Shown one piece after another: positions 1-27,554 of a DNA stretch of 49,190 bases. The DNA is from Dehalococcoidales bacterium (GTDB lineage: Bacteria; Chloroflexota; Dehalococcoidia; Dehalococcoidales; JAFGLR01): NCBI GenBank assembly GCA_016927955.1, contig JAFGLR010000027.1, forward strand, positions 1 through 49,190. The letters run 5' to 3'. The position numbers and the translations under genes were made by a program. How positions within the stretch are numbered: position 1 is the stretch's first letter; each line of letters opens with the position of its first letter. The notes beneath the pieces were generated by a model, which saw nothing but the letters and a program-made list of their open reading frames with translations, was not told the origin of the DNA and ran no database searches.

Positions 1-72
1 TCCCCCTTTTAAGGCAACCACTATTTATCATTGTTTGCCTCTGTTACGGGGAGTATATCTTTTTTGGCACTG

Positions 73-2706
73 CTATGCAACAGAACCTTCTTTCTTTGTT
101 GCTACCACTCGGTAACATGTTACCTCCCGTTTATGAATAATACAGACCGGTATTTTTAATTGAGCCGCCGTTTTTAAGTCCTGCGGCGATGGTGAGGGGT
201 TAGTAGGATGCTCATGTACCAGGGCGTGTATTTTGCCGTTATCGCAGGTCAGCGGGATGCTGATAGAGTGAGCCTCGCCGGTAATATCCGCCTGTTTACG
301 GAGCTGCCCGCCGGCCTTACATACCAGGTAACCCGTCTCTTCTTCGAGCCTAACCTGCACCGAATTTGAGATGGCCTTCTTGACCTTTGCCGGCACCGTT
401 TCATTCATCTGTGGTAGTACTTCTTTCTCCGCTGCGCCGTTTTCCACCGGTACGCCCATTTTCCTGAACTGCTCGACTTCCTGCTCGTATATTGTGCGAT
501 TTTCTTTGTCCAGTCGGATAATCGTCTTATGGACCGTCGGCTTGCCGTGGCAATGTCCGCCGACCCAATGCTGCCCTTTACGGCAACAAATAAAGACCAT
601 CAAATGCGGGTCCGGTTTCAATACCCGGAACGTGCCCGGCCGGCACTCTTTGGAATCGATATAATGCTTGACGATAGAATTAGGATAAATCTCGATTAAC
701 TTCGGCACCGGCTTTTCGTTCAACTTAACGATGTCCTGGATACTAAAAAGACTTTTGTAATGCTCATTTTCATCCGCGGCGATATGATTAAATACCCGCC
801 CGACTTCCTTATAGCCGCCCTGGGCGGCCTCTTTCGCCAGCTCTTTATACCGGCGGACCGCACCCTGCTCGTCTTCCATTAAATACTTGACCGCAGCGAT
901 TAACCGGCTGGTATTTTCCCGGTTGAGGTCGAACAGCTCCGCCAGTACCATCAAAGACCGGACTGCACTATCGAATAGGTGCTCTTTGGTCGCTCTGGAT
1001 TCCGGCATAAAGCTGCCCTGGGCGGGCGGTGGGCTATCGATGACTTTCTGTGCATAGCCGGACAATATACCGGCGATTCGCTTGCCGGACCGGCTGTGCT
1101 CATCCAGAGCCTTGAGTATTTTCTCCTGGAACGGGTTTAATTCCCGCTCCAGCATCGATGATTGATTGAGATATTTCTCCACGGTCATGCCAGGCGTTTT
1201 TTTAATTCCGCTGTAAACGGAGACGGCCTTCGCCATATCATCGCCGATGATATAATCCGGGTCCCGCTGGCCGGATAGTGCCATGCTTTCCGCTTTGGCC
1301 AGCATGCCGAGACTTCCTGTAATGCCATTAAAGATATTCTTGACGTTGACGTCGGTCGACTCGAAGTATTTCTCCGCTAACCGGAGGCCTGTATCGCCTT
1401 TAAACGTGGCAACGAATAACGCCATCGCCGCTCTCCGGACGCCGTCCTGGGATAACTGGCCCTGGGCATCTACGAGTCTTGCTTGCTCATTCGCCGGCAG
1501 CTTGTTTAAAAAAGCTGTAACAAAAGATTTGTTCCGCGCGGACCGTATCGCGTCTTCGATTCCCTCGCCCTCGAGGACGTTTAAACCGTTTAGCATTTCG
1601 GAGGTTATCTTATCCGCGTCGGTACGGGCTTTCTCGATAGCCGATGATTCGATGGCGGCCGGGGCGTTGGCTTCCTGGGCGAAATCCTTTAGCGACACTT
1701 TGGTCAGCAGCTCCCGGACGAGCACCGGCATTTTTAGCTTTTCGACTTGTTTCGTCTCTATACCATAAGCCGGTGCGATTTTTAGCAGTGCCTTGCGGTA
1801 AGCGGCATATTTGTCCGGGAAATTGCCGGCTGCTAAAAGCAAAGCCATAGTGCGACCGTTTCCGCTTAACACGTTATAATGAGCATCGATAATCGGAGCT
1901 CCCCGGTCGATGCTCTGAAAATCGACCAGTAGTGCATCAGGTTCTAAATTTTGGCTTATATTCTGCACCTGGAGCCGCTGGGCTGCCCGTTCCCGAATAC
2001 GTGGTTGCAATTCCGCCGGATATTTCGGGTTAGGTGTGAAAGTATGCGGGTCATGTGACACGTTCAGCTTATCGCCCTCGATAATACGGTACTCAAAATC
2101 GTATTTTGTGACGCCGGTCTGGCCGAAAGCGGTGGTTTTATTGCTGACGGTCCGCTTTTTAGCGTCAACTTGCTTCAACAACTCGTCGATGGTGTCCGGC
2201 AGCGACTTTATGGACGGTGATATCGCCTCTGTTTTCTCAGTATGTGTTACCGTGAAAGAGCAGGTATTGCTTTTACAATTGCCCTTGACCTTGACCATTG
2301 GGTATTTTTCGAAGAGATTTGCGATAACGTCCTCTTTTAAATGGGCTTTCGCATTGCAACTATAATAAACCGGCTCGATTTGCTTTCGCCAGTTCCGCGA
2401 CCATTTCTCGAGGTCGGGCCAGGTGCCGCCCTTACAATAAATCGTCTTGGCTTTGTTGTGGTATTCGAGGGCTTCGGTATTAAGGTCGGCCAATATTTTG
2501 CGGTGTGCCTCGTCCATCAAGGCCGTTTCCCGGGCCAGCGATGACACCATTAATAGGTGTTTCCCGAGGCAGTATTCCGGTGGGTCCAGCTCTACCTGGT
2601 TACACGGGCAGGAATCGTCGCCGGCGTGCAATGTAACATGGGAAAGCTCCTCGATTAATGCCCGGTACTGCCAGGTTAACATGTCGGCCGATGATTTTGT
2701 TTTCAT
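73..2706 (-). CDS. Polyvalent multidomain protein: DdrB-like ParB domain, ferritin-like ExxH motif, C-terminal JAB/MPN domain
   Basis: aa~200-335 SHD..NP.YP.ELQPR.R...GAPII....VLSGNGRTMAL...PVLVR (DdrB-like ParB). aa 610-650 EDEQGAVRRY...IAADENEH (ferritin/rubrerythrin-like). aa 790-843 E...HEHP....PSPQD (JAMM-like). Confidence 0.8.
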   Translation of the reverse strand: MKTKSSADMLTWQYRALIEELSHVTLHAGDDSCPCNQVELDPPEYCLGKHLLMVSSLARETALMDEAHRKILADLNTEALEYHNKAKTIYCKGGTWPDLEKWSRNWRKQIEPVYYSCNAKAHLKEDVIANLFEKYPMVKVKGNCKSNTCSFTVTHTEKTEAISPSIKSLPDTIDELLKQVDAKKRTVSNKTTAFGQTGVTKYDFEYRIIEGDKLNVSHDPHTFTPNPKYPAELQPRIRERAAQRLQVQNISQNLEPDALLVDFQSIDRGAPIIDAHYNVLSGNGRTMALLLAAGNFPDKYAAYRKALLKIAPAYGIETKQVEKLKMPVLVRELLTKVSLKDFAQEANAPAAIESSAIEKARTDADKITSEMLNGLNVLEGEGIEDAIRSARNKSFVTAFLNKLPANEQARLVDAQGQLSQDGVRRAAMALFVATFKGDTGLRLAEKYFESTDVNVKNIFNGITGSLGMLAKAESMALSGQRDPDYIIGDDMAKAVSVYSGIKKTPGMTVEKYLNQSSMLERELNPFQEKILKALDEHSRSGKRIAGILSGYAQKVIDSPPPAQGSFMPESRATKEHLFDSAVRSLMVLAELFDLNRENTSRLIAAVKYLMEDEQGAVRRYKELAKEAAQGGYKEVGRVFNHIAADENEHYKSLFSIQDIVKLNEKPVPKLIEIYPNSIVKHYIDSKECRPGTFRVLKPDPHLMVFICCRKGQHWVGGHCHGKPTVHKTIIRLDKENRTIYEQEVEQFRKMGVPVENGAAEKEVLPQMNETVPAKVKKAISNSVQVRLEEETGYLVCKAGGQLRKQADITGEAHSISIPLTCDNGKIHALVHEHPTNPSPSPQDLKTAAQLKIPVCIIHKREVTCYRVVATKKEGSVA

Positions 2707-2709
2707 AAC

Positions 2710-2922
2710 TCAATCCTTTGCTGCACTATCCGCCATTGCGAAAATTAAATTGGTTACCTCTTGGATGGCCTTCCTTTTCTCCCGGTTTTCCCGTTTACGT
2801 AATCGAGCGTTCTTTCTCCGTGCCTCTCTGCCCTGGGCGGCGGCCAGTTGCCGCTTAGCCCGGGCCAGTTCCGTTTTAAGGCTGGCTACCGGGGATGACC
2901 GCTTTGGTAAATTGCTCGACAT
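2710..2922 (-). CDS. Small, highly basic helical protein (possibly nucleic-acid binding)
   Basis: 70 aa, R/K-rich. Fills the gap between the 290-aa and 877-aa ORFs and ends 3 nt before the next start. Confidence 0.55.
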   Translation of the reverse strand: MSSNLPKRSSPVASLKTELARAKRQLAAAQGREARRKNARLRKRENREKRKAIQEVTNLIFAMADSAAKD

Positions 2923-3748
2923 CGATGCCCGCCTTCTTCATTTTTTCCATCGTCTGGTATAATTGCCATGCCCGCCCGAAATCTCCGGCAAAGACTTCCT
3001 GTTTCGCCGGCATAAAGATGTCTTTTAATGTTTTAACGCCCTCCGCGTTTTCCGAGACGAGTTTCAGAATTTCCCCGATAATGCTCATACGTCCGGACTG
3101 CGGCACCGGCCCGCCCGGATTGCCAGCTCCGCTGCCGGCTGCTGGCTCTTCTTTGACGGCATCAATAAGTGATTGCTTCAATGCCTCGCCATTTTTTTTA
3201 AACACCTCTTCAGATGCCGCGTCAATCATATCCGGCAACTTTTTCAGATATTCGGCGATAGCAGTATTTATTTTGCCGGCCATCGTCTCCGCCATCGTCC
3301 CGGCAATACGGTACTGGACTTTATCGATAAGCTCATTTTCTACCGGGTGAGGAATGATTGCCGGAAGCTCTTTTAAAATCGGCGGTAATAATGCCGCGAC
3401 TAATTCATCCAGAGTCGGCATAACAATTAATTTCTTAACCTCAGCGGCCACTTCCGCCGCGGTCGGTACCGGTTTAGCATCCATTCCTTGTAAAGTGGGC
3501 GGTAATGTTTTAATAACCTCAGCGGCGATATCGGCAGCCGTGGGTGGTTCTTTCGAAGGTGGCAGCCGCTTTAATACTTCGTCACAAATACGGTCAAGCT
3601 CGGTCTGGCCTAGCTCCGCAGCTGGAGCCGGTGACGGCTGCCGCTTGGCAACCTCAGCAGCAATAACATCGATTAAACTATCAATGTCGATAAAATTGCC
3701 ATACTTGGCTTTTATCTCTTCGGGGGTCATTTTCTTTTTAGGAACCAT
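2876..3748 (-). CDS. Hypothetical protein with proline-punctuated helical repeats
   Basis: 290 aa. RBS AAGGTG upstream. Repeats such as PTAADIAAEVIKTLP and PTAAEVAAEVKKLI. Confidence 0.75.
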   Translation of the reverse strand: MVPKKKMTPEEIKAKYGNFIDIDSLIDVIAAEVAKRQPSPAPAAELGQTELDRICDEVLKRLPPSKEPPTAADIAAEVIKTLPPTLQGMDAKPVPTAAEVAAEVKKLIVMPTLDELVAALLPPILKELPAIIPHPVENELIDKVQYRIAGTMAETMAGKINTAIAEYLKKLPDMIDAASEEVFKKNGEALKQSLIDAVKEEPAAGSGAGNPGGPVPQSGRMSIIGEILKLVSENAEGVKTLKDIFMPAKQEVFAGDFGRAWQLYQTMEKMKKAGIDVEQFTKAVIPGSQP

Positions 3749-3763
3749 CGCTCACCTTCTTGC

Positions 3764-4150
3764 TTATTTCGTTAAGGTAACCTTGATAACTCCCGGTTGG
3801 CCGCTGGTATCCGGCCCTGGTACGGTCGGAACGGTTACGGATTCTCTTATATCCAACTCCTCGTGCAGTAACGCCCGGCCTTCCGGTGTCAGGCTTTTAA
3901 CCCATTCGCTGAAATAAACCGCGCGGTCTTCCGGGGAAAAATCGGCGATAGACTTCGGGGTTTTGGCCAACTCTTCTTTTAGAGTGGCGTTTTCGGTTTT
4001 CAGGGCATCGATATCGGCGTCTTTCTGTTTGATTATTTCTTCATTCAAAGTCGCGGAGGGTTGCTTGAACTGGTTTAATACTTCCTCCGGTACCGACAAG
4101 TACATCGTCCCGTCCTGTCTCTTCAAGATTGGAATTTCTAATTTGTCCAT
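3764..4150 (-). CDS. Hypothetical coiled-coil protein
   Basis: 128 aa. GGGAGG RBS before the ATG. Heptad-like stretch IDALKTENATLKEEL. Confidence 0.75.
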   Translation of the reverse strand: MDKLEIPILKRQDGTMYLSVPEEVLNQFKQPSATLNEEIIKQKDADIDALKTENATLKEELAKTPKSIADFSPEDRAVYFSEWVKSLTPEGRALLHEELDIRESVTVPTVPGPDTSGQPGVIKVTLTK

Positions 4151-4289
4151 TATTTGCCTCCCTGGTATTCACTATTTCATTCGCCTCGCTCGGGCGCATA
4201 TCGTGGCTGAAAATTAGATGGTATAACAGATTAGCTTTACGCGAGAAAGCCGTAGGGCACAGGGTACACACAACATACCTCTTACTCAT
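4041..4289 (-). CDS. C2H2 zinc-finger protein
   Basis: CTLCPTAFSRKANLLYHLIFSH matches C-x2-C-x3-F-x5-L-x2-H-x4-H. First ORF downstream of a sigma70-like promoter. Confidence 0.7.
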   Translation of the reverse strand: MSKRYVVCTLCPTAFSRKANLLYHLIFSHDMRPSEANEIVNTREANNGQIRNSNLEETGRDDVLVGTGGSIKPVQATLRDFE

Positions 4290-4333
4290 TTGCCAGTTAT
4301 CCGATACATCCGATAAATCCCATATTTAGCTAA

Positions 4334-4363
4334 ACCATAGAACAATAGTGCTAATATTGTCAA
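4334..4363 (-). promoter_or_regulatory. Putative sigma70 promoter of the element operon
   Basis: TTGACA (4363-4358), an 18-nt spacer, then TATGGT, about 45 nt upstream of the zinc-finger ORF. Confidence 0.5.
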
Positions 4364-4517
4364 GGTTTGAGGCTAAAACTGCAAATCCTTCCAATTTTAA
4401 CGTGTTTTTAGGCATTTATGCGCCGGTAAACGGTTTTTCAAATCAGTTATTGTCAAGTATTGAGCCTGACACAACAGATAAACTGGCGGCGGGGGTGTAT
4501 GTATGCGCACGGAGTGA

Positions 4518-4590
4518 TAAGGAAAGTGTAAGGAAAGTGTAAGGATTTTAGAAGTGAGACGACATAATAATGTAAGGAAAGTGTAAGGAA
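4518..4590. repeat. Phased 11-bp direct repeats TAAGGAAAGTG (iteron/operator-like)
   Basis: Copies start at 4518, 4529, 4540 (partial), 4573 and 4584 (partial). An AT-rich tract follows. Confidence 0.85.
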
Positions 4591-4737
4591 TATTGAGAGT
4601 AATAATAATTTACTTAAAGCTAAAAATATTAATTCCTTCCATTCTTATCACTAAAATTTAATACCCACCCCTCTAATGCACGGTGTTAACCGGCGCAGTA
4701 AGTAGAGTAAACACCATTGAAAAATGGTTTTTGAGAT

Positions 4738-5685
4738 TTATTTTATATGTAGATTATCGACCGGGCTAAATGGACGTTGTTTTATCGCGGCCTCTTCGCA
4801 GCTGATAGTTTTTACATATTTATACGTCATATCCCGGGTACTGTGGCCCATTAAGTTCTGAACATCCAGCTCATTGGCACCGTTCCGCAGCGACATTGTC
4901 CCGAATGTATGCCGGAAAGTATGCGGCGAGCACCGGACGTCCTGGAGACGGGCCAGCCGGGCCAACTGCTGAATTGCCGATTGCACACCGCGCCACTTTA
5001 GCGGCCGGCGTTCCTCGTTAACCCATAAACAACCGAGACCGTCTTTCCGGAGCAGCAGGTATTTAACCAGGGCCAGCGCCGATTTCTTGCCGAAAGATAC
5101 CAATCTCTCCTTTTGCCCCTTCCCCATGACCCGGATAAAAAAGCGGTCGAAATCGATGTCCGCGAGCTGTATGCCGGCCAGTTCTGACAAGCGCAGACCG
5201 GTATCGGTAAAAAGTAAGACGATAGCCCGGTTACGGACCCCGAGAAAAGTACCGGCAGGGCAAAGGTTTGCCAGGGTTTCGATATGCTCCGGTCGAAACG
5301 GCTTGATAATGGTCTGAGGCACTTTAGGCGGCCGCATGGGCGACATCGGGTTTTTTTCGATAACCTTAATTTCGTCGCTGGCCAGCCAGTTAAACCAGAC
5401 GTTAAGAGTGCCGTAATGGCTGTGGACCGTCCCTGGCTTGTGATTTTCCTGCAGCGCGGCAATATAAAGCCGGACGTGCATCGTGGTGACCTGGTCGAGG
5501 TAGTAAAGCCTGCCGTGGTGGCAGCACTCGATGAACTTTCCGATTTTTTGGGCGTAATCGATTAGAGTTTTCGGGGATAGCCCGTCTGTTTTCCGGGAAA
5601 GTAAAAATAATTTTAGATGCGTGGCCAGTTTGCCATCATTAAGGTTTACCAGGGAAGGGGACAATATAGATTTAGAATCAAACAC
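4738..5685 (-). CDS. Tyrosine recombinase/integrase (XerC/D-like)
   Basis: Catalytic residues R (TGLRLSE), K (GKGQK), HxxR (HTFRH), H (LMGH) and Y (YKYV) are all present. Likely GTG start at 5685 behind a GGAGGAG RBS. Confidence 0.95.
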   Translation of the reverse strand: MFDSKSILSPSLVNLNDGKLATHLKLFLLSRKTDGLSPKTLIDYAQKIGKFIECCHHGRLYYLDQVTTMHVRLYIAALQENHKPGTVHSHYGTLNVWFNWLASDEIKVIEKNPMSPMRPPKVPQTIIKPFRPEHIETLANLCPAGTFLGVRNRAIVLLFTDTGLRLSELAGIQLADIDFDRFFIRVMGKGQKERLVSFGKKSALALVKYLLLRKDGLGCLWVNEERRPLKWRGVQSAIQQLARLARLQDVRCSPHTFRHTFGTMSLRNGANELDVQNLMGHSTRDMTYKYVKTISCEEAAIKQRPFSPVDNLHIK

Positions 5686-5700
5686 CGCTGTAACTCCTCC

Positions 5701-5763
5701 ATTAATGTGCGTTAGAGCACACACGGCTGAGTGTGAGATTTTGCCGTATTAATGTGCGCTAGA
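5701..5763. repeat. 16-bp direct repeat pair near the att site
   Basis: ATTAATGTGCGTTAGA (5701-5716) and ATTAATGTGCGCTAGA (5748-5763) are 15/16 identical. Confidence 0.75.
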
Positions 5764-5804
5764 ACGCATATTTTCCGGCTACCAGCGGCATTTTAGAATC
5801 AAAG

Positions 5805-5878
5805 TCGGGGTGGACGGATTTGAACCGTCGGCCACCTGAACCCCATTCAGGTGCGCTACCAGGCTGCGCTACACCCCG
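5805..5878 (-). tRNA. tRNA-Pro(GGG); CCA not encoded
   Basis: Minus strand reads CGGGGTGTAGCGCAGCCTGGTAGCGCA-CCTGA-ATGGGGT-TCAGG...GGTTCAAATCC...CACCCCGA: a full cloverleaf with anticodon GGG. Confidence 0.97.
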
Positions 5879-6103
5879 TCAACCAGCGTTTTTATATTAG
5901 CATAATTACCGTTCATTTTTAAAGTCAGCCCAACGTACGAATGTATTACCATCTTATTCGGGACAAATAAAACGTTATCCCGATATGAAATTGTTCGCCG
6001 AATTGAAATCGTCCCCTATTTCGGTTATAAATATAGTTATACAATTGTTGGAAAGTATTAAGATATTATAAACGGGATTTATCTGTAGTTACGGAGAGAT
6101 AGA

Positions 6104-7393
6104 GTGTCAAAAAAACAAATCGAAAAAATGCAAAAAGAGTATACCAAGCCCCAGCTTTCCCGCTGGCAGCAGCAAAAAAAACGCCAGCGGATAATTATGT
6201 TCAGCGGCATCGCGTTAATTGCGGTGGTTATAATAGGACTTTTTACGGCATGGTTTATGGAAGAGCAATGGCCGTATTATAAAACGGTTATAAATGTTAA
6301 CGGCGAAAAGATAACCATGAGACAATATGTTAATACACTAAAAGCTATGAGTGAAGGTCAAGACGAGAATCTCATTTATAATTATGCCATGCAGGTGGAT
6401 TCTTTAATGGCGCAAACTGAAATACTTAAGCAGGCAGCCGCTGACGTAAATATTACGGTTACTAATGAAGAAGTTAATACCAAACTCAAAGAATATAACC
6501 TCACTGAAGGCTGGGCAACATATATTAGAATGCAGCTGCTCTCCGGAAAAATGCTAGAAGAATATTTTATACCTCAAGTACCTGCAACCGTAGAACAACG
6601 TGACATCGAGGTGATGTTTTTAGAGAGTGATGCCCAGGTTAATGCAATCAGAGCGTTACTTGATGAAGGGCAGAGTTTTGCAGACCTGGCTGCACAATAT
6701 TCCCTGGATGATTATTCAAAGAACCAAAAAGGTGCGATAGGGATGCACCCTAAAGAAATATTTATAAATTTACTTGGCTCAAATGTTCCCGGGGAATATG
6801 CCTTTTCCAGTGATACCGGCAGTCTGAGCCAGGGGCGTCCCGATGCCGACAAAGAAAAAGCGGTAGGTTACTGGTTAATTATGCTTATTGAAACAGGCAC
6901 CGGAGAATATGAGGGTCAGGCTAATGTTAGGGCAATGTTGCTGGGCAGCGAAGCGGAAGCTAATCAGGTACGTAAGGATATTGTAGAAAACGGGCAGGAT
7001 TTCGGCACTATAGCTGACGAGAAATCTCAGTATAGCTCCGGCGGTAAAAATGGTGGTCTAATCGGGTTTGTCAGTGAAGATTCGGAGATATTCAGCGCTG
7101 CATTTAAAAATGCTGCTTTTAGTCTGGAAATCGGTGAAATTAGCCAGCCGGTTAAAGATATTACTATGACCACTAAAGGCGGCTCCTGGTTAATAAAAGT
7201 AGTTGGTGCTGACAGTGATGCAGCAATTTCAGATGAGGATAAAAACACAATAGCCAATGCTTTATTTGAGCTATGGTTCCTATCGGCACAAGCTAATGCA
7301 GTAGTTGTCGATTCAATATCGGCTACGGATGTAATTAATGGTAATGAGGGAGCTCCTATTTTCTGGGCTATATCTAAAGTAATTGGTGATTAA
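6104..7393 (+). CDS. Membrane-anchored SurA/PrsA-like peptidyl-prolyl isomerase with two parvulin domains
   Basis: N-terminal TM helix. Parvulin motifs FADLAAQYSLD...G and FGTIADEKS...GGLIG...F..AAFSL..GEISQPV. Confidence 0.85.
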   Translation: MSKKQIEKMQKEYTKPQLSRWQQQKKRQRIIMFSGIALIAVVIIGLFTAWFMEEQWPYYKTVINVNGEKITMRQYVNTLKAMSEGQDENLIYNYAMQVDSLMAQTEILKQAAADVNITVTNEEVNTKLKEYNLTEGWATYIRMQLLSGKMLEEYFIPQVPATVEQRDIEVMFLESDAQVNAIRALLDEGQSFADLAAQYSLDDYSKNQKGAIGMHPKEIFINLLGSNVPGEYAFSSDTGSLSQGRPDADKEKAVGYWLIMLIETGTGEYEGQANVRAMLLGSEAEANQVRKDIVENGQDFGTIADEKSQYSSGGKNGGLIGFVSEDSEIFSAAFKNAAFSLEIGEISQPVKDITMTTKGGSWLIKVVGADSDAAISDEDKNTIANALFELWFLSAQANAVVVDSISATDVINGNEGAPIFWAISKVIGD

Positions 7394-10378: not shown

Positions 10379-10401
10379 AAGACAAACCAATTATCGTTAA
10401 T

Positions 10402-11535
10402 CTACTTGACCTTGGATTCAGCTAAATTATCCAGATGGAAATGGCTGGTACCCATGTCTATCTCTGTTGTTTTAGCCCGTTTGTAGTAAATTGACATGTC
10501 ATGGTCTTCGGTAAACCCGATGGCCCCGTTTATCTGCATACATATTGCCGAAGCATGACGGACACCTTCATTCACCAAAGCTTTGGCAATATGGACTTCA
10601 TCTGCTGCGGGTAAGCCTTCACTGAGCCGCCAGGCTATCTCATTTACTACCAGAGAGCTGCCATCGACTTCTATCAACATATTAGCGCAATTATGCTGGA
10701 TAATCTGGAAACTGCCGATGTGTTTGCCGAAGGCCTTTCTCTGTTTGGCGTAATCCAGGGTAAGGTCCATCATAGCTTTGGCTCCGCCAATCATATCGGC
10801 ACATCTGGCCACGGTTACTTTTTCCAATATTTTTTCCATTAACGGCCAGCCCTGATTCAAGCTACCGAGTATATTGGCAGACGGTACTTTAACCTTATCG
10901 AAGATAACTTCACACTGCTTATCGCCGGAAATAGTATTAAGCATATTAATGGTAATGCCGGGGGTTTTGCTGTCGATGATAAATAGGGTAATACCGTCTT
11001 CAGGCTTGCCGTCATCTTTAGTCCGGACCGCACATACCATATAGTCGCTGACATGTGCATCCGGTACGAAAAGTTTCGTCCCCTGAATAATATAATCATT
11101 ACCTTCCGGTAAAGCTTTAACCTTAATGCCATCGGCTTTATAGCTGGCACTGGTTTCTAATAGGGCCAGCGTGAGTAATAGCTTACCCTCGGCCATTTTG
11201 GACAAATATTCTTTCTGCTGTTCTTCATTGCCGGCTTCCATGATAGATAACCCGCCCAGTAGGACTGTTGAGAAAAACGGACCGGGTAAACAGGCTCGCC
11301 CCATTTCCTCTAACAAAACAACCAAATCGAGGAAACTGCCATCAGCCCCGCCGTATTTTTCCGGCACGATTAAGCCCATCCAGCCCATTTCGCTCATCTG
11401 CTGCCAGAGCTCGTTGGTGTAGCCTTTTTCATCTTTAGCCATCTGGCGTACCAGGCCCTTCGGACAGTTAGTCTTTAAAAAGTCTTTAGCGGATGTTCGT
11501 AGCATTTCTTGCATTTCGCTTAATGTAAAATCCAT
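10402..11535 (-). CDS. Acyl-CoA dehydrogenase, probable non-catalytic subunit of a heteromer
   Basis: ACAD fold (GTKLFV, YAKQRKAFGKHIGSFQ, GAIGFTE). C-terminal GTSE motif is degenerate. Start reassigned to MDFTLS. Confidence 0.85.
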   Translation of the reverse strand: MDFTLSEMQEMLRTSAKDFLKTNCPKGLVRQMAKDEKGYTNELWQQMSEMGWMGLIVPEKYGGADGSFLDLVVLLEEMGRACLPGPFFSTVLLGGLSIMEAGNEEQQKEYLSKMAEGKLLLTLALLETSASYKADGIKVKALPEGNDYIIQGTKLFVPDAHVSDYMVCAVRTKDDGKPEDGITLFIIDSKTPGITINMLNTISGDKQCEVIFDKVKVPSANILGSLNQGWPLMEKILEKVTVARCADMIGGAKAMMDLTLDYAKQRKAFGKHIGSFQIIQHNCANMLIEVDGSSLVVNEIAWRLSEGLPAADEVHIAKALVNEGVRHASAICMQINGAIGFTEDHDMSIYYKRAKTTEIDMGTSHFHLDNLAESKVK

Positions 11536-20557: not shown

Positions 20558-21331
20558 TTATTCTTCCGGTGGTTTTTGTGGTTTAGATACAAATGCCTTC
20601 AATAATTCGATTGGTAATGGGAATATAATGGTGTTAGTCTTCTCGGAAGCTATTTCTGTCATTGTCTGCAAATAACGCAGTTGGATAGTGGCTGGTTCCT
20701 GTCCGATGATTTTAGCCGCATCAGCTAACCTCTGAGAAGCCTGGAATTCACCGTCAGCGTGAATAATCTTGGCACGGCGTTCACGTTCGGCTTCTGCCTG
20801 GGCTGCCATCGACCGCCTCATCGACTCAGGTAATTCAACATCCTTGATTTCAACGATGGTTACTTTAACACCCCATGGGTCGGTCTGCTCGTCAATCATC
20901 TTTTGCAGTATTTGATTGAGCTTCTCACGCTGGGTTAATAGTTCATCAAGTTCAGATTGTCCAAGAACATTCCTTACGGTTGTCTGGGAAATCAGAGAGG
21001 TTGACCGGATATGGTCTAACACTTTAACGACTGAGGCTTCCGGGTCGACGACTCTGAGATAAACAACCGCATTCACTCTTACGGTTACGTTATCTTTGGT
21101 TATGATATCCTGCGGCGGAACATCCATGGTAATAATACGCAGGTCGACTTTAACCATCCTATCAAAGAAAGGGATAATCATGAAGAAACCCGGTCCCTTG
21201 GCACCCGTTAAACGGCCAAGGCGGAAAATTACACCTCTTTCATATTCCTGCACGATCTTAATAGAGAGAGATAGAAGTATGATGATAAATATTGCTACAA
21301 CAACCCAAATAATGATTGGACCCATATACAC
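20558..21331 (-). CDS. SPFH/stomatin-like (slipin) protein
   Basis: N-terminal TM helix. Motifs EYERGVIFRLGR, ITKDNV and QAEAERERRAK. Confidence 0.95.
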   Translation of the reverse strand: MYMGPIIIWVVVAIFIIILLSLSIKIVQEYERGVIFRLGRLTGAKGPGFFMIIPFFDRMVKVDLRIITMDVPPQDIITKDNVTVRVNAVVYLRVVDPEASVVKVLDHIRSTSLISQTTVRNVLGQSELDELLTQREKLNQILQKMIDEQTDPWGVKVTIVEIKDVELPESMRRSMAAQAEAERERRAKIIHADGEFQASQRLADAAKIIGQEPATIQLRYLQTMTEIASEKTNTIIFPLPIELLKAFVSKPQKPPEE

Positions 21332-26972: not shown

Positions 26973-27554
26973 ATGAAAGCCAGAAAAGCAATCATTAAAC
27001 GCCGGACTAAAGAAACCGATATTAATCTGGAATGGAACCTGGACGGCACCGGGGATAGTAATATTAAGACCGGCATCGGCAGTTTCGACCATCTTCTTTC
27101 GCAGGTGGCAAAGCACGGCACATTTAACATAACATTAGCAGCCAGCGGGGATGACCAGCATCACCTTATTGAGGATGTAGCCCTTTGTATGGGCAAAGCT
27201 TTTAATAAAGCTCTGGGCGAAAAGATAGGTATTGTCAGAATGGCTGACGCTACCGTGCCGATGGATGAAGCTTTAGCGATGGCGGCTATCGACATTAGCG
27301 GCAGGGGATACTCCGTAATAGAACTACCGCTTAAAGGTAATGATATGGGTGGGTTTCCATCTGATTTGATTCGGCATTTCCTCGAATCATTTGCCACAGA
27401 AGGGAAAATCACTCTGCACGCCCGGATTCTTTATGGAGTTAATGACCATCACAAGGTTGAGGCTCTCTTTAAAGCACTGGGGAGGGCTTTAAAACAAGCT
27501 ACACGTATCGATGAACGCATTGGCTTACCCAGTACTAAAGGATTGTTAGAATAG
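26973..27554 (+). CDS. hisB: Imidazoleglycerol-phosphate dehydratase
   Basis: Motifs [16 protein letters not shown] and NDHHKVEA. Confidence 0.97.

Follow-up and report, generated by a model that had tools for sequence, protein, structure and literature searches.

Background

Polyvalent proteins, as described in the main text of the survey by Iyer, Burroughs, Anand, de Souza and Aravind (2017, PMC5512222), are long polypeptides of many modules encoded in mobile elements. One of the hubs on which they are built is the DdrB-like ParB domain, a family with a highly conserved active-site arginine and a tyrosine located in a family-specific helix. According to the same text, DdrB-ParB occurs only in phage-type and RadC only in conjugative-element proteins; ArdC-N, normally linked to systems resembling type IV secretion systems, is assigned together with RadC to conjugative-element polyvalent proteins that act on the entering DNA; SNF2 ATPases and N6A methylases are general hub domains; and a zincin peptidase is proposed to carry out processing. 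The prototype of the DdrB family belongs to phage P1, where the Dar proteins, DdrB included, are internal head proteins that enter the cell with the DNA (PMC12810830); the packaged part of DdrB was predicted to be the N-terminal, ParB-bearing fragment (PMC5512222). Here we analyze P0001, a protein of 877 amino acids (aa) encoded on the minus strand at positions 73-2706 of a stretch of 49,190 nucleotides (nt) that forms the start of contig C38 (JAFGLR010000027.1) in the genome assembly of a Dehalococcoidales bacterium and is referred to below as the window. On balance, we consider it probable that P0001 is a polyvalent protein of an integrated virus-like element, in which a constant chassis carries interchangeable cargo, and that it is delivered, or acts on entry, in the manner of P1 DdrB.

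Modular architecture of P0001

The reading frame of P0001 runs open from an ATG over 877 codons to the stop, and the start codon appears sound because the homologues open with the identical motif M..K.S..ML.WQY. A word-indexed protein search with P0001 returned 118 proteins, and an exhaustive search covered 1.84 billion representative proteins; when aa 590-877 were used as the query of a word-indexed search, only the query itself was returned, the index being too insensitive for that region. In the PHROG scan, families of unknown function match P0001 over aa 120-480.

A first-pass annotation made from the nucleotide sequence alone had described P0001 as a polyvalent-type protein on a DdrB-like ParB core and had named five modules: an N-terminal Cys/His domain, the ParB core with a helical extension, a half-ferritin marked by an ExxH segment, a second Cys/His domain (hereafter CH) and a JAMM-like domain (hereafter JAB). 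When separate segments of P0001 were compared by BLAST and jackhmmer with 234 collected proteins, all five proved to be separable and recurrent, and a small 'link' module joined them as the sixth independent unit. Pairwise comparison of the N, CH, JAB and ferritin alignments gave hhalign probabilities of at most 1%, and these are therefore unrelated units. The combination had been flagged as unfamiliar, and indeed no second example of the exact order N-ParB-ferritin-CH-JAB was found among the 234 proteins or in the loci compared; the nearest variants are N-ParB-CH-JAB (P0021), N-ParB-ferritin (P0120 and P0121) and N-...-ferritin-ParB-CH-JAB (P0134). In other relatives, the cargo is exchanged for a SNF2 helicase, ArdC-N with an M78 peptidase, RadC, methyltransferases, an Asp protease, DUF2958 or an ADP-ribosyltransferase (ART). 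Such exchange of modules among relatives is a hallmark of polyvalent proteins, and the polyvalent character proposed for P0001 is borne out by this swapping together with the match to P1 ddrB described below.

P0001 thus combines several unrelated effector-type modules that vary between relatives and is encoded in a mobile element; it is a new architecture within the known class of polyvalent proteins. With the proteins described in PMC5512222 it shares the long multi-module polypeptide and the DdrB-like ParB hub, and its relatives swap the same SNF2, ArdC-N, metallopeptidase, RadC, methylase and ART modules. Compared with the main text of that survey, there are four differences: P0001 is headed by an undescribed N-domain for which there is no Pfam model; its partner is a JAB domain with four cysteines (Cys4-JAB), as opposed to the zincin peptidase proposed for processing; it carries a ferritin-like module; and the DdrB-ParB family to which it belongs joins RadC and ArdC-N, both of which occur in relatives. 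The words 'ferritin' and 'rubrerythrin' are absent from that main text, although such a module may be listed in its supplementary architecture tables, and a search of the full-text literature found no co-mention of 'polyvalent protein' and 'ferritin-like'. The term ddrB-ParB itself appears in no more than 3 papers of the full-text literature.

The DdrB-type ParB core

The ParB core and its helical extension occupy aa ~187-585 (nt 952-2148, minus strand), and the part recognized by the Pfam family ddrB-ParB (PF18763) corresponds to nt 1711-2109. The Pfam match, at aa 200-332, is highly significant (E-value 6.5e-26; 91.3 bits versus a cut-off of 27.6). In the exhaustive search, 5892 representative clusters matched P0001 at an E-value of at most 1e-3 and 1103 at an E-value of at most 1e-30; nearly all of these matches fall on aa ~187-585, and the longest of the matched proteins has 5442 residues. 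A tblastn search of 50,697 phage records with P0001 matched 34 records, among them P1 and its relatives, in which aa 171-557 of P0001 align at 31.4% identity (E-value 3e-29) inside the ddrB coding sequence. The P1 ddrB coding sequence comprises 995 codons, and the aligned part spans DdrB residues ~14-396; therefore, the entire unit of ~390 residues, ParB domain plus helices, is common to P0001 and the prototype, in agreement with the assignment of the core and its extension in the first-pass annotation. P0001 contains GNGR at aa 282-285; R285 of this motif and Y303, both unchanged in all 30 of the relatives that were aligned, are candidates for the conserved arginine and tyrosine of the family. 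No relative of the core was detected among the sequences in the Protein Data Bank (PDB). Beyond the shared unit, the two proteins differ in that P1 DdrB, a 995-aa protein annotated as a possible metallopeptidase, has the ParB unit at its start and lacks the N-domain, ferritin, CH and JAB modules.

The N-domain and the link module

The region preceding the ParB core consists of two modules. The N-domain (aa ~4-130; nt 2317-2697, minus strand) is specific to this family and always N-terminal: it is present in 81 of the 234 proteins and begins at residue 22 or earlier in all 81. In two alignments of 41 sequences each, H27, C33, C35, C46 and H50, which account for the Cys/His character of the domain, are invariant along with E44, K49, E60, R107, K108 and E111; Q13, P34 and T61 also count among its invariant residues. 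The N-domain matched nothing in Pfam, PHROGs or the PDB sequences, and an alignment query of viral contigs likewise gave no match. The N-domain is also found on proteins free of ParB, namely P0086, where it is joined to a methylase, and the proteins of loci L165 and L173; it is the constant head of this polyvalent family.

The link module (aa ~137-180; nt 2167-2298, minus strand), which was recognized by its recurrence in the jackhmmer searches and is not among the five modules first named, is present in 71 of the 234 proteins. It always occurs upstream of the ParB core and frequently in two copies per protein, the second of which directly follows the core in several relatives. The consensus in relatives, ISGKC-x4-C-x-F-x-VK followed by a helix, describes a two-cysteine hairpin, for which a role as a cleavage site, a zinc half-site or a spacer is conceivable.

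A half-ferritin of the rubrerythrin type

The segment in which an ExxH motif had suggested a half-ferritin is a two-helix module of the rubrerythrin type (aa ~597-664; nt 715-918, minus strand) with the ligand residues E613, Y620, E646 and H649. Pfam Rubrerythrin (PF02915) matches aa 613-665 (E-value 6.7e-7; 30.2 bits versus a cut-off of 22.8), and the match covers 52 of the 137 profile positions, that is, a single helix pair. The module was found at varying positions in 13 of the 234 proteins and also in 4 of 80 metagenome loci. The pattern E613-x6-Y620-x25-E646-x2-H649 is kept without exception in the 13 copies, and the same four ligands are invariant in all five sequences when P0001 is aligned with the four independent metagenome copies. 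The modules of the relatives match ferritin-clan Pfam families (Rubrerythrin, Ferritin, Ferritin_2 and EncFtn-like, the last in one relative at an E-value of 8e-4) in 10 of 12 cases at an E-value of at most 0.01 and in 3 of 12 cases above the curated cut-off.

Searches of the PDB sequences give a consistent picture. With whole P0001 as the query, phmmer produced nine weak matches (E-values 0.05-1.7) at aa 603-696, and all nine are rubrerythrin, nigerythrin, sulerythrin or a designed di-iron protein. The five-sequence profile of the module matched sulerythrin at an E-value of 2.1e-14, rubrerythrins at ~1e-10, and symerythrin and bacterioferritins at 1e-9 to 1e-8. Two stretches are matched in each chain, such that the module aligns with both halves of the four-helix bundle, and the alignment with sulerythrin places the E, Y, E and H ligands of the module onto the corresponding E-x6-Y...E-x2-H motif. 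The ligand spacing is presumably that of the first helix pair of bacterioferritin or rubrerythrin rather than that of encapsulated ferritin (EncFtn). A hidden Markov model (HMM) of the half-ferritin modules also retrieves a canonical host rubrerythrin in one of the loci compared (E-value 1.4e-12). A rubrerythrin gene near the element in L173 was rejected as a part of that element, being a canonical host gene located beside genes for CsbD, an ion channel and a serpin.

As judged from these comparisons, the half-ferritin of P0001 is a true rubrerythrin-type unit. No complete four-helix bundle with two ligand sets per chain was encountered in the proteins that carry the module, each of which has one helix pair in one module; a complete di-iron site therefore needs a second copy. 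A described counterpart is encapsulated ferritin (He et al. 2016, PMC5012862), in which two main helices bear an E, Tyr, E, His ligand set like that of the module and the metal-dependent ferroxidase centre (Glu32, Tyr39, Glu62, His65) is formed across a dimer interface. The module of P0001 differs from the ferritin families in being a single hairpin of ~65 residues inside a large multidomain protein, and from the encapsulated and rubrerythrin systems in the lack of a rubredoxin-like domain, an encapsulin shell gene and a cargo-loading peptide. Since all four site residues are invariant, metal binding apparently matters here, beyond mere helix packing. Given the need for a second copy, the module should act as a metal-dependent dimerization module, an oxidoreductase module, or both.

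The CH and JAB domains

The CH domain (aa ~667-760; nt 427-708, minus strand) is the terminal module in most relatives. It is present in 33 of the 234 proteins, in 34 instances, of which 27 end no more than 56 residues from the C-terminus, 4 precede a fused terminal JAB and 3 are located elsewhere. The first-pass annotation took this region for a second Cys/His domain. That it is a conserved domain holds, but a Cys/His metal site is not evident: in an alignment of 14 sequences C708 and C719 are the only invariant cysteines and there is no invariant histidine; R694 is conserved in at least 90% of the sequences. No relative of the CH domain was found among the PDB sequences.

The JAMM motif has the form E-x(n)-H-x-H-x(7)-S-x-x-D. 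The JAB domain of P0001 (aa ~785-868; nt 103-354, minus strand) contains E790, H831, H833, S840 and D843 along with the cysteines C796, C821, C855 and C864, and a JAB domain is present in 46 of the 234 proteins. Pfam families had been expected for three segments of P0001: ddrB-ParB and Rubrerythrin were obtained, whereas Prok-JAB (PF14464), for the query alone, matches aa 818-861 at an E-value of 0.024 and 14.9 bits, below the cut-off of 25 bits. The same cut-off is passed by P0031 and P0135, and that of DUF4329 by P0028 and the gene in L165. In an alignment of 29 JAB sequences, H831, H833, S840, D843, G810, C855 and C864 are invariant, and E790, C796 and C821 are conserved in at least 90%; the spacing from HxH to S is x6 in P0001 and L004 and x7 in most relatives. 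The family profile matches AfJAMM (1oi0, 1r5x) at an E-value of 1.2e-5, an MPN protein at 7e-5 and a RadC homologue at 0.005, and 34 of the 35 PDB matches at an E-value of at most 10 are JAB/MPN proteins. By the evidence of its full JAMM residue set, accompanied by four conserved cysteines, the C-terminus of P0001 is a JAMM/MPN domain, as had been proposed.

The motif E...HxH...S..D is common to this domain, AfJAMM, Prok-JAB, RadC (PF04002) and DUF4329. The JAB family of P0001 differs from prokaryotic JAMM domains in the additional C796, C821, C855 and C864 and in its fixed place directly after the polyvalent gene. DUF4329 is the Tox-JAB-2 of Zhang et al. (2012), in whose account it is a predicted nuclease, not a peptidase (PMC3482391), and Iyer et al. 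likewise predict for RadC a nuclease rather than a peptidase (PMC5512222). No gene for a ubiquitin-like partner was noticed among the locus ORFs scanned with Pfam and PHROGs, a scan that included no dedicated search for ubiquitin-like proteins.

A conserved gene block

We compared loci from genome, viral and metagenome contigs and from related genomes, with 41 N-domain ORFs outside the genome of P0001 itself. Single-protein queries of the genome and viral contigs found nothing, and the loci were obtained with alignment queries alone. The closest named relatives of the polyvalent gene come from metagenome-assembled genomes (MAGs) of Chloroflexota, Patescibacteria, Eubacteriales and Deltaproteobacteria. 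In 22 of the 23 N-domain loci with at least 500 nt of downstream sequence, the polyvalent gene is followed in the same orientation by a separate JAB gene of ~90-130 aa, which in most cases touches or overlaps its stop codon, and in none of the 23 are the two fused. Where both are visible, CH is the last domain before the JAB gene (for example, in L008, L013, L177, L183, L184, L186, L214 and L237). The JAB domain could pass for one more interchangeable tool. In 22 of the 23 informative loci, however, it has a gene of its own directly downstream: JAB is a constant partner of the N-domain polyvalent proteins, not variable cargo, and in P0001 it is fused.

The rarity of the fused form raises the question of whether the CH-JAB fusion, or the whole architecture, is an artefact of assembly or sequencing, produced by the loss of a stop codon or by a chimera where the contig ends. 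Besides the separate JAB in related loci, this is suggested by the position of the gene, which lies so close to the contig end that C38 ends 72 nt past the stop and nt 1-87 of the window are shared with another contig, and by the contamination estimate of 6.3% for the assembly (2.29 Mb in 177 contigs, 91.9% complete). The shared segment (1-87, no strand assigned), which includes the last 4 codons of P0001, the stop and the 72 nt downstream, is identical to positions 4635-4721 at the end of host contig C39, a contig that carries genes for alanyl-tRNA synthetase, ROK and DUF6512 proteins. The identity ends abruptly at nt 88, and therefore the 3' extreme of P0001 lies in a repeat or an assembly branch; no contig of the bin extends the segment, which is a candidate repeat, insertion sequence (IS) end or strain-variable junction. 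Alignments of contigs across the window covered almost only the tRNA gene and did not bridge the contig end. The shared segment, however, begins 4 codons before the stop, past the complete JAB domain, and the frame is open across the entire gene. Moreover, JAB is found at the very C-terminus in 14 of the 46 JAB-bearing proteins and directly after CH in P0134, P0021 and P0015, and since these fused forms come from other sources, the fusion is unlikely to be an artefact; we consider this explanation very improbable.

The block extends beyond JAB. In 15 of the 17 loci with at least 4 kb of downstream sequence, a homologue of a 360-aa protein, encoded in the host genome on contig C20, is found within 9 kb downstream. 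This protein has 52 homologues, without any informative name or Pfam family except for one fragment. For several of these homologues, the longest contig is equal in length to that of a polyvalent homologue, and they probably sit on the same contigs. The 360-aa protein had no match in the phage collection (tblastn), in Pfam at an E-value of at most 1, in the PDB (profile) or in PHROGs. Among its 30 language-model neighbours (Atlas), 27 are unnamed clusters, mostly viral, and 2 are clusters of PRD1-type P3 capsid proteins; against the double jelly-roll lead, the comparison with PRD1 P3 gave an hhalign probability of 0.4%.

A minimal variant of the block is seen in L173 (G179), from the same order as the host: a 374-aa N-domain protein without ParB (10397-11521) is encoded beside a D12 methylase, with homologues of the 360-aa protein and of a 271-aa protein downstream of it, and further coordinates of the block are 4646-7013. 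A 493-aa RNase_H_2 protein in L173 was considered and rejected as a terminase because it lacks a Walker A motif and its homologue in the genome of P0001 is on an ordinary host contig. Another candidate to be rejected was the 211-aa neighbour of the 360-aa protein as a membrane protein, no Kyte-Doolittle window of which reaches 1.6.

The putative integrated element

The mobile-element setting anticipated by the first-pass annotation is apparent from the neighbours of P0001. Read along the minus strand, the order is tRNA-Pro(GGG) (5804-5878), a tyrosine integrase identified in the Pfam and PHROG scans (4738-5724), a set of small ORFs, and P0001, with the integrase and P0001 on the same strand 2 kb apart. 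Copies of the last 43 nt of the tRNA at its 3' end (5804-5846) are found on contig C20 as attachment-site repeats, one at 20855-20897 (100% identity) and one at 27226-27268 (95%), and further island genes follow each of them.

The beginning of C20 resembles the continuation of the block. At 120-210 there is a decayed remnant of a JAB gene, comprising the last ~27 codons with stops before them, which is 87% identical over 39 nt to window positions 103-140; it suggests past recombination or the loss of a separate JAB gene. The remnant is followed by ORFs of 119, 211, 360, 271, 541 and 201 aa, and the 211-, 360- and 271-aa proteins are homologous to the products of genes downstream of polyvalent/JAB genes in L008, L010, L011 and L013; the 119-aa ORF has no similarity to P0001. 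Farther along C20 are genes for a DUF3854/DUF927 primase-like protein, a DNA methylase, a resolvase and an S24/HTH repressor. The GC content is 49.4% for C38:1-5800, 47.0% for C20:1-20800 and 45.0% for the genome. From the synteny and the tRNA-Pro repeats, we infer that C38:1-5846, an unassembled gap and C20:1-20897 form one integrated element of ~27 kb at tRNA-Pro.

Among the small ORFs, a coiled-coil-like ORF of 128 aa (3764-4150, minus strand) shows weak similarity to ORFs that precede the polyvalent genes of L011 and L012. An Ala/Pro/Glu/Lys-rich ORF of 290 aa directly upstream of P0001 (2876-3748, minus strand) belongs to no known family; relatives hold an ORF of 240-292 aa at this position, for which no sequence similarity was found. 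A 70-aa ORF at 2710-2922 (minus strand), a candidate gene without a family match, shares 47 nt with the end of the 290-aa ORF and stops 3 nt short of the P0001 start codon. A scan of window positions 1-6000 for promoters and terminators gave counts not above those in shuffled sequences. Among sequencing runs, the sequence is listed for one DNA data set, a metagenome of sediment and possibly the source material, and for none of RNA. Between the tRNA-Pro 3' repeats on C20 (20855-27268), there is a second island, L003, with a GC content of 35%, a tyrosine integrase of its own and genes for a 360-aa protein without a family, a 605-aa NACHT/STAND NTPase with a weak PADLOC match (mad8) and a PaREP1-family protein; it looks like a tandemly integrated defence-type islet.

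The proximity of this NACHT island brings up another explanation of P0001, namely that it is a domesticated host defence protein or toxin-like effector instead of a tool of the element. Matches of weak to threshold level between the JAB modules of relatives and DUF4329 (Tox-JAB-2) are compatible with such a role, Tox-ParB and Tox-JAB-2 are toxin domains of polymorphic toxins in the account of Zhang et al. (2012, PMC3482391), and Iyer et al. suggested a role of this kind for an ArdC-N and DdrB-ParB protein of Gracilimonas (PMC5512222). The evidence from the locus points in the opposite direction. Of 15 proteins compared with the PADLOC families, neither P0001 nor the other 13 from the putative element gave a match, and the single, weak match came from the NACHT protein of the adjacent island. 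The surroundings showed no secretion, RHS or immunity context, and the gene has an integrase and tRNA repeats as its borders. In addition, the module is present in a viral record with terminal repeats that is rated complete, and the distribution is sparse: P0001-type proteins were found in 1 of the 31 related genomes and in 4 of the 401 genomes sampled from the phylum, the genome of P0001 being counted in both. We regard domestication as improbable.

A complete virus-like relative

The viral record just mentioned (IMG/VR, L165 and L169, here G031) contains a relative of the block in 29,814 bp flanked by direct terminal repeats and is rated 100% complete. It encodes a 559-aa protein that consists of an N-domain, ArdC-N and an M78 peptidase without a ParB domain, and in addition a JAB protein, a LuxR-type protein, a homologue of the 360-aa protein with 364 aa, an integrase and an AAA_25 helicase; the 559-aa protein and a 715-aa BNR_4/DUF2341 protein are its largest ORFs.

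A large beta-propeller, glycosidase-like protein is encoded a few genes past the 360-aa gene both on C20 (L002, 3524-5149) and in L165 (12419-14563). The matches are a weak one to Glyco_hydro_130 and those to BNR_4 and DUF2341; these could be host-recognition proteins.

Several observations weigh against the explanation of P0001 as a delivered polyvalent protein of a virus-like element. Terminase, portal, capsid and tail families are matched by 0 of 31 ORFs of G031 in Pfam and 0 of 36 in PHROGs; scans of C20 revealed no terminase, portal, capsid or tail family either, and none of the listed C20 ORFs contains a P-loop motif. Because no virion or transfer machinery is recognizable, packaging and injection are argued from analogy. 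The C38-C20 join is unassembled, and the 87 nt at the end of the gene lie in an assembly branch. In L173, one of the 23 loci, the N-domain gene and the 360-aa gene are present while a JAB gene is undetectable. Finally, a role of JAB as a processing protease is uncertain because the closest JAB types (prokaryotic JAMM, RadC and DUF4329) are predicted nucleases.

The lack of recognizable packaging genes is central to a further alternative, under which P0001 is never packaged and serves as a cytoplasmic multi-enzyme for establishment or anti-defence, protecting or modifying the DNA of the element; the ParB domain would then be an NTP-binding DNA clamp, the half-ferritin a dimerization domain and JAB a RadC-like nucleic-acid enzyme. 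Packaging machinery is unrecognized both in the element and in the complete relative, relatives of P0001 carry ArdC-N, RadC, SNF2 and methyltransferase modules, and the gene is in the vicinity of the integrase on the same strand, all of which would fit an establishment protein. This alternative sits poorly with the tight same-strand conservation of the gene immediately upstream of the JAB and 360-aa block, a position of the late type in phages (PMC5512222), and with a ParB core homologous to a packaged P1 protein; we take it to be possible but rather unlikely. For a delivered polyvalent protein, the comparison with P1 has its own limit: P1, a tailed myovirus, packages its Dar proteins by a known pathway, whereas no genes for such a pathway were seen in the P0001 element. 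From the analogy with P1 DdrB and the position of the gene, we infer delivery with the DNA and an anti-defence activity for P0001.

G031 might belong to the non-tailed virus-like elements or to some other unclassified type. A broader proposal, which we put forward as a doubtful one, is that genes for N-domain polyvalent, Cys4-JAB and 360-aa proteins mark undescribed temperate non-tailed viruses of ~27-30 kb that infect uncultured anaerobes. The capsid protein of such viruses, possibly a double jelly-roll, would be unrecognizable by sequence; the N-domain would anchor a customizable effector polyprotein in the particle, from which JAB would free the modules; and the half-ferritin, as a switch that senses iron or oxygen or as an effector of the peroxidase type, would suit anaerobic hosts.

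Proposed mode of action

If P0001 is a delivered polyvalent protein, a tentative sequence of events can be outlined. The N-terminal Cys/His domain, the link and the DdrB-type ParB core would form the chassis, which in this case bears the half-ferritin as cargo, followed by the CH domain and the JAMM-type JAB metalloenzyme fused in frame. The protein would be made together with the products of downstream particle-forming genes, like P1 DdrB, with the N-domain tying the variable cargo to the machinery of the element, and would be loaded into the particle or else made at once upon entry. In the recipient cell, it may act on incoming or host nucleic acid or on nucleotides, while the half-ferritin could pair into a di-iron site. 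JAB would either process nucleic acid or cleave the polyprotein between its modules, in which case candidate cleavage sites are offered by the link modules, which recur at the borders of domains.

Implications

Polyvalent proteins amount to an inventory of what mobile elements deploy during their first minutes in a new cell, and P0001 adds to the modules of this inventory a recurrent half-ferritin with a metal site. The chassis of the family, an N-domain with an obligatory JAB partner, is a testable alternative to the model in which a zincin peptidase performs the processing. A gene block in elements without recognizable capsid or packaging genes suggests that sediment bacteria harbour a little-explored kind of virus-like element. 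The half-ferritin itself is a natural example of the two-helix state that has been proposed as the ancestor of ferritins.

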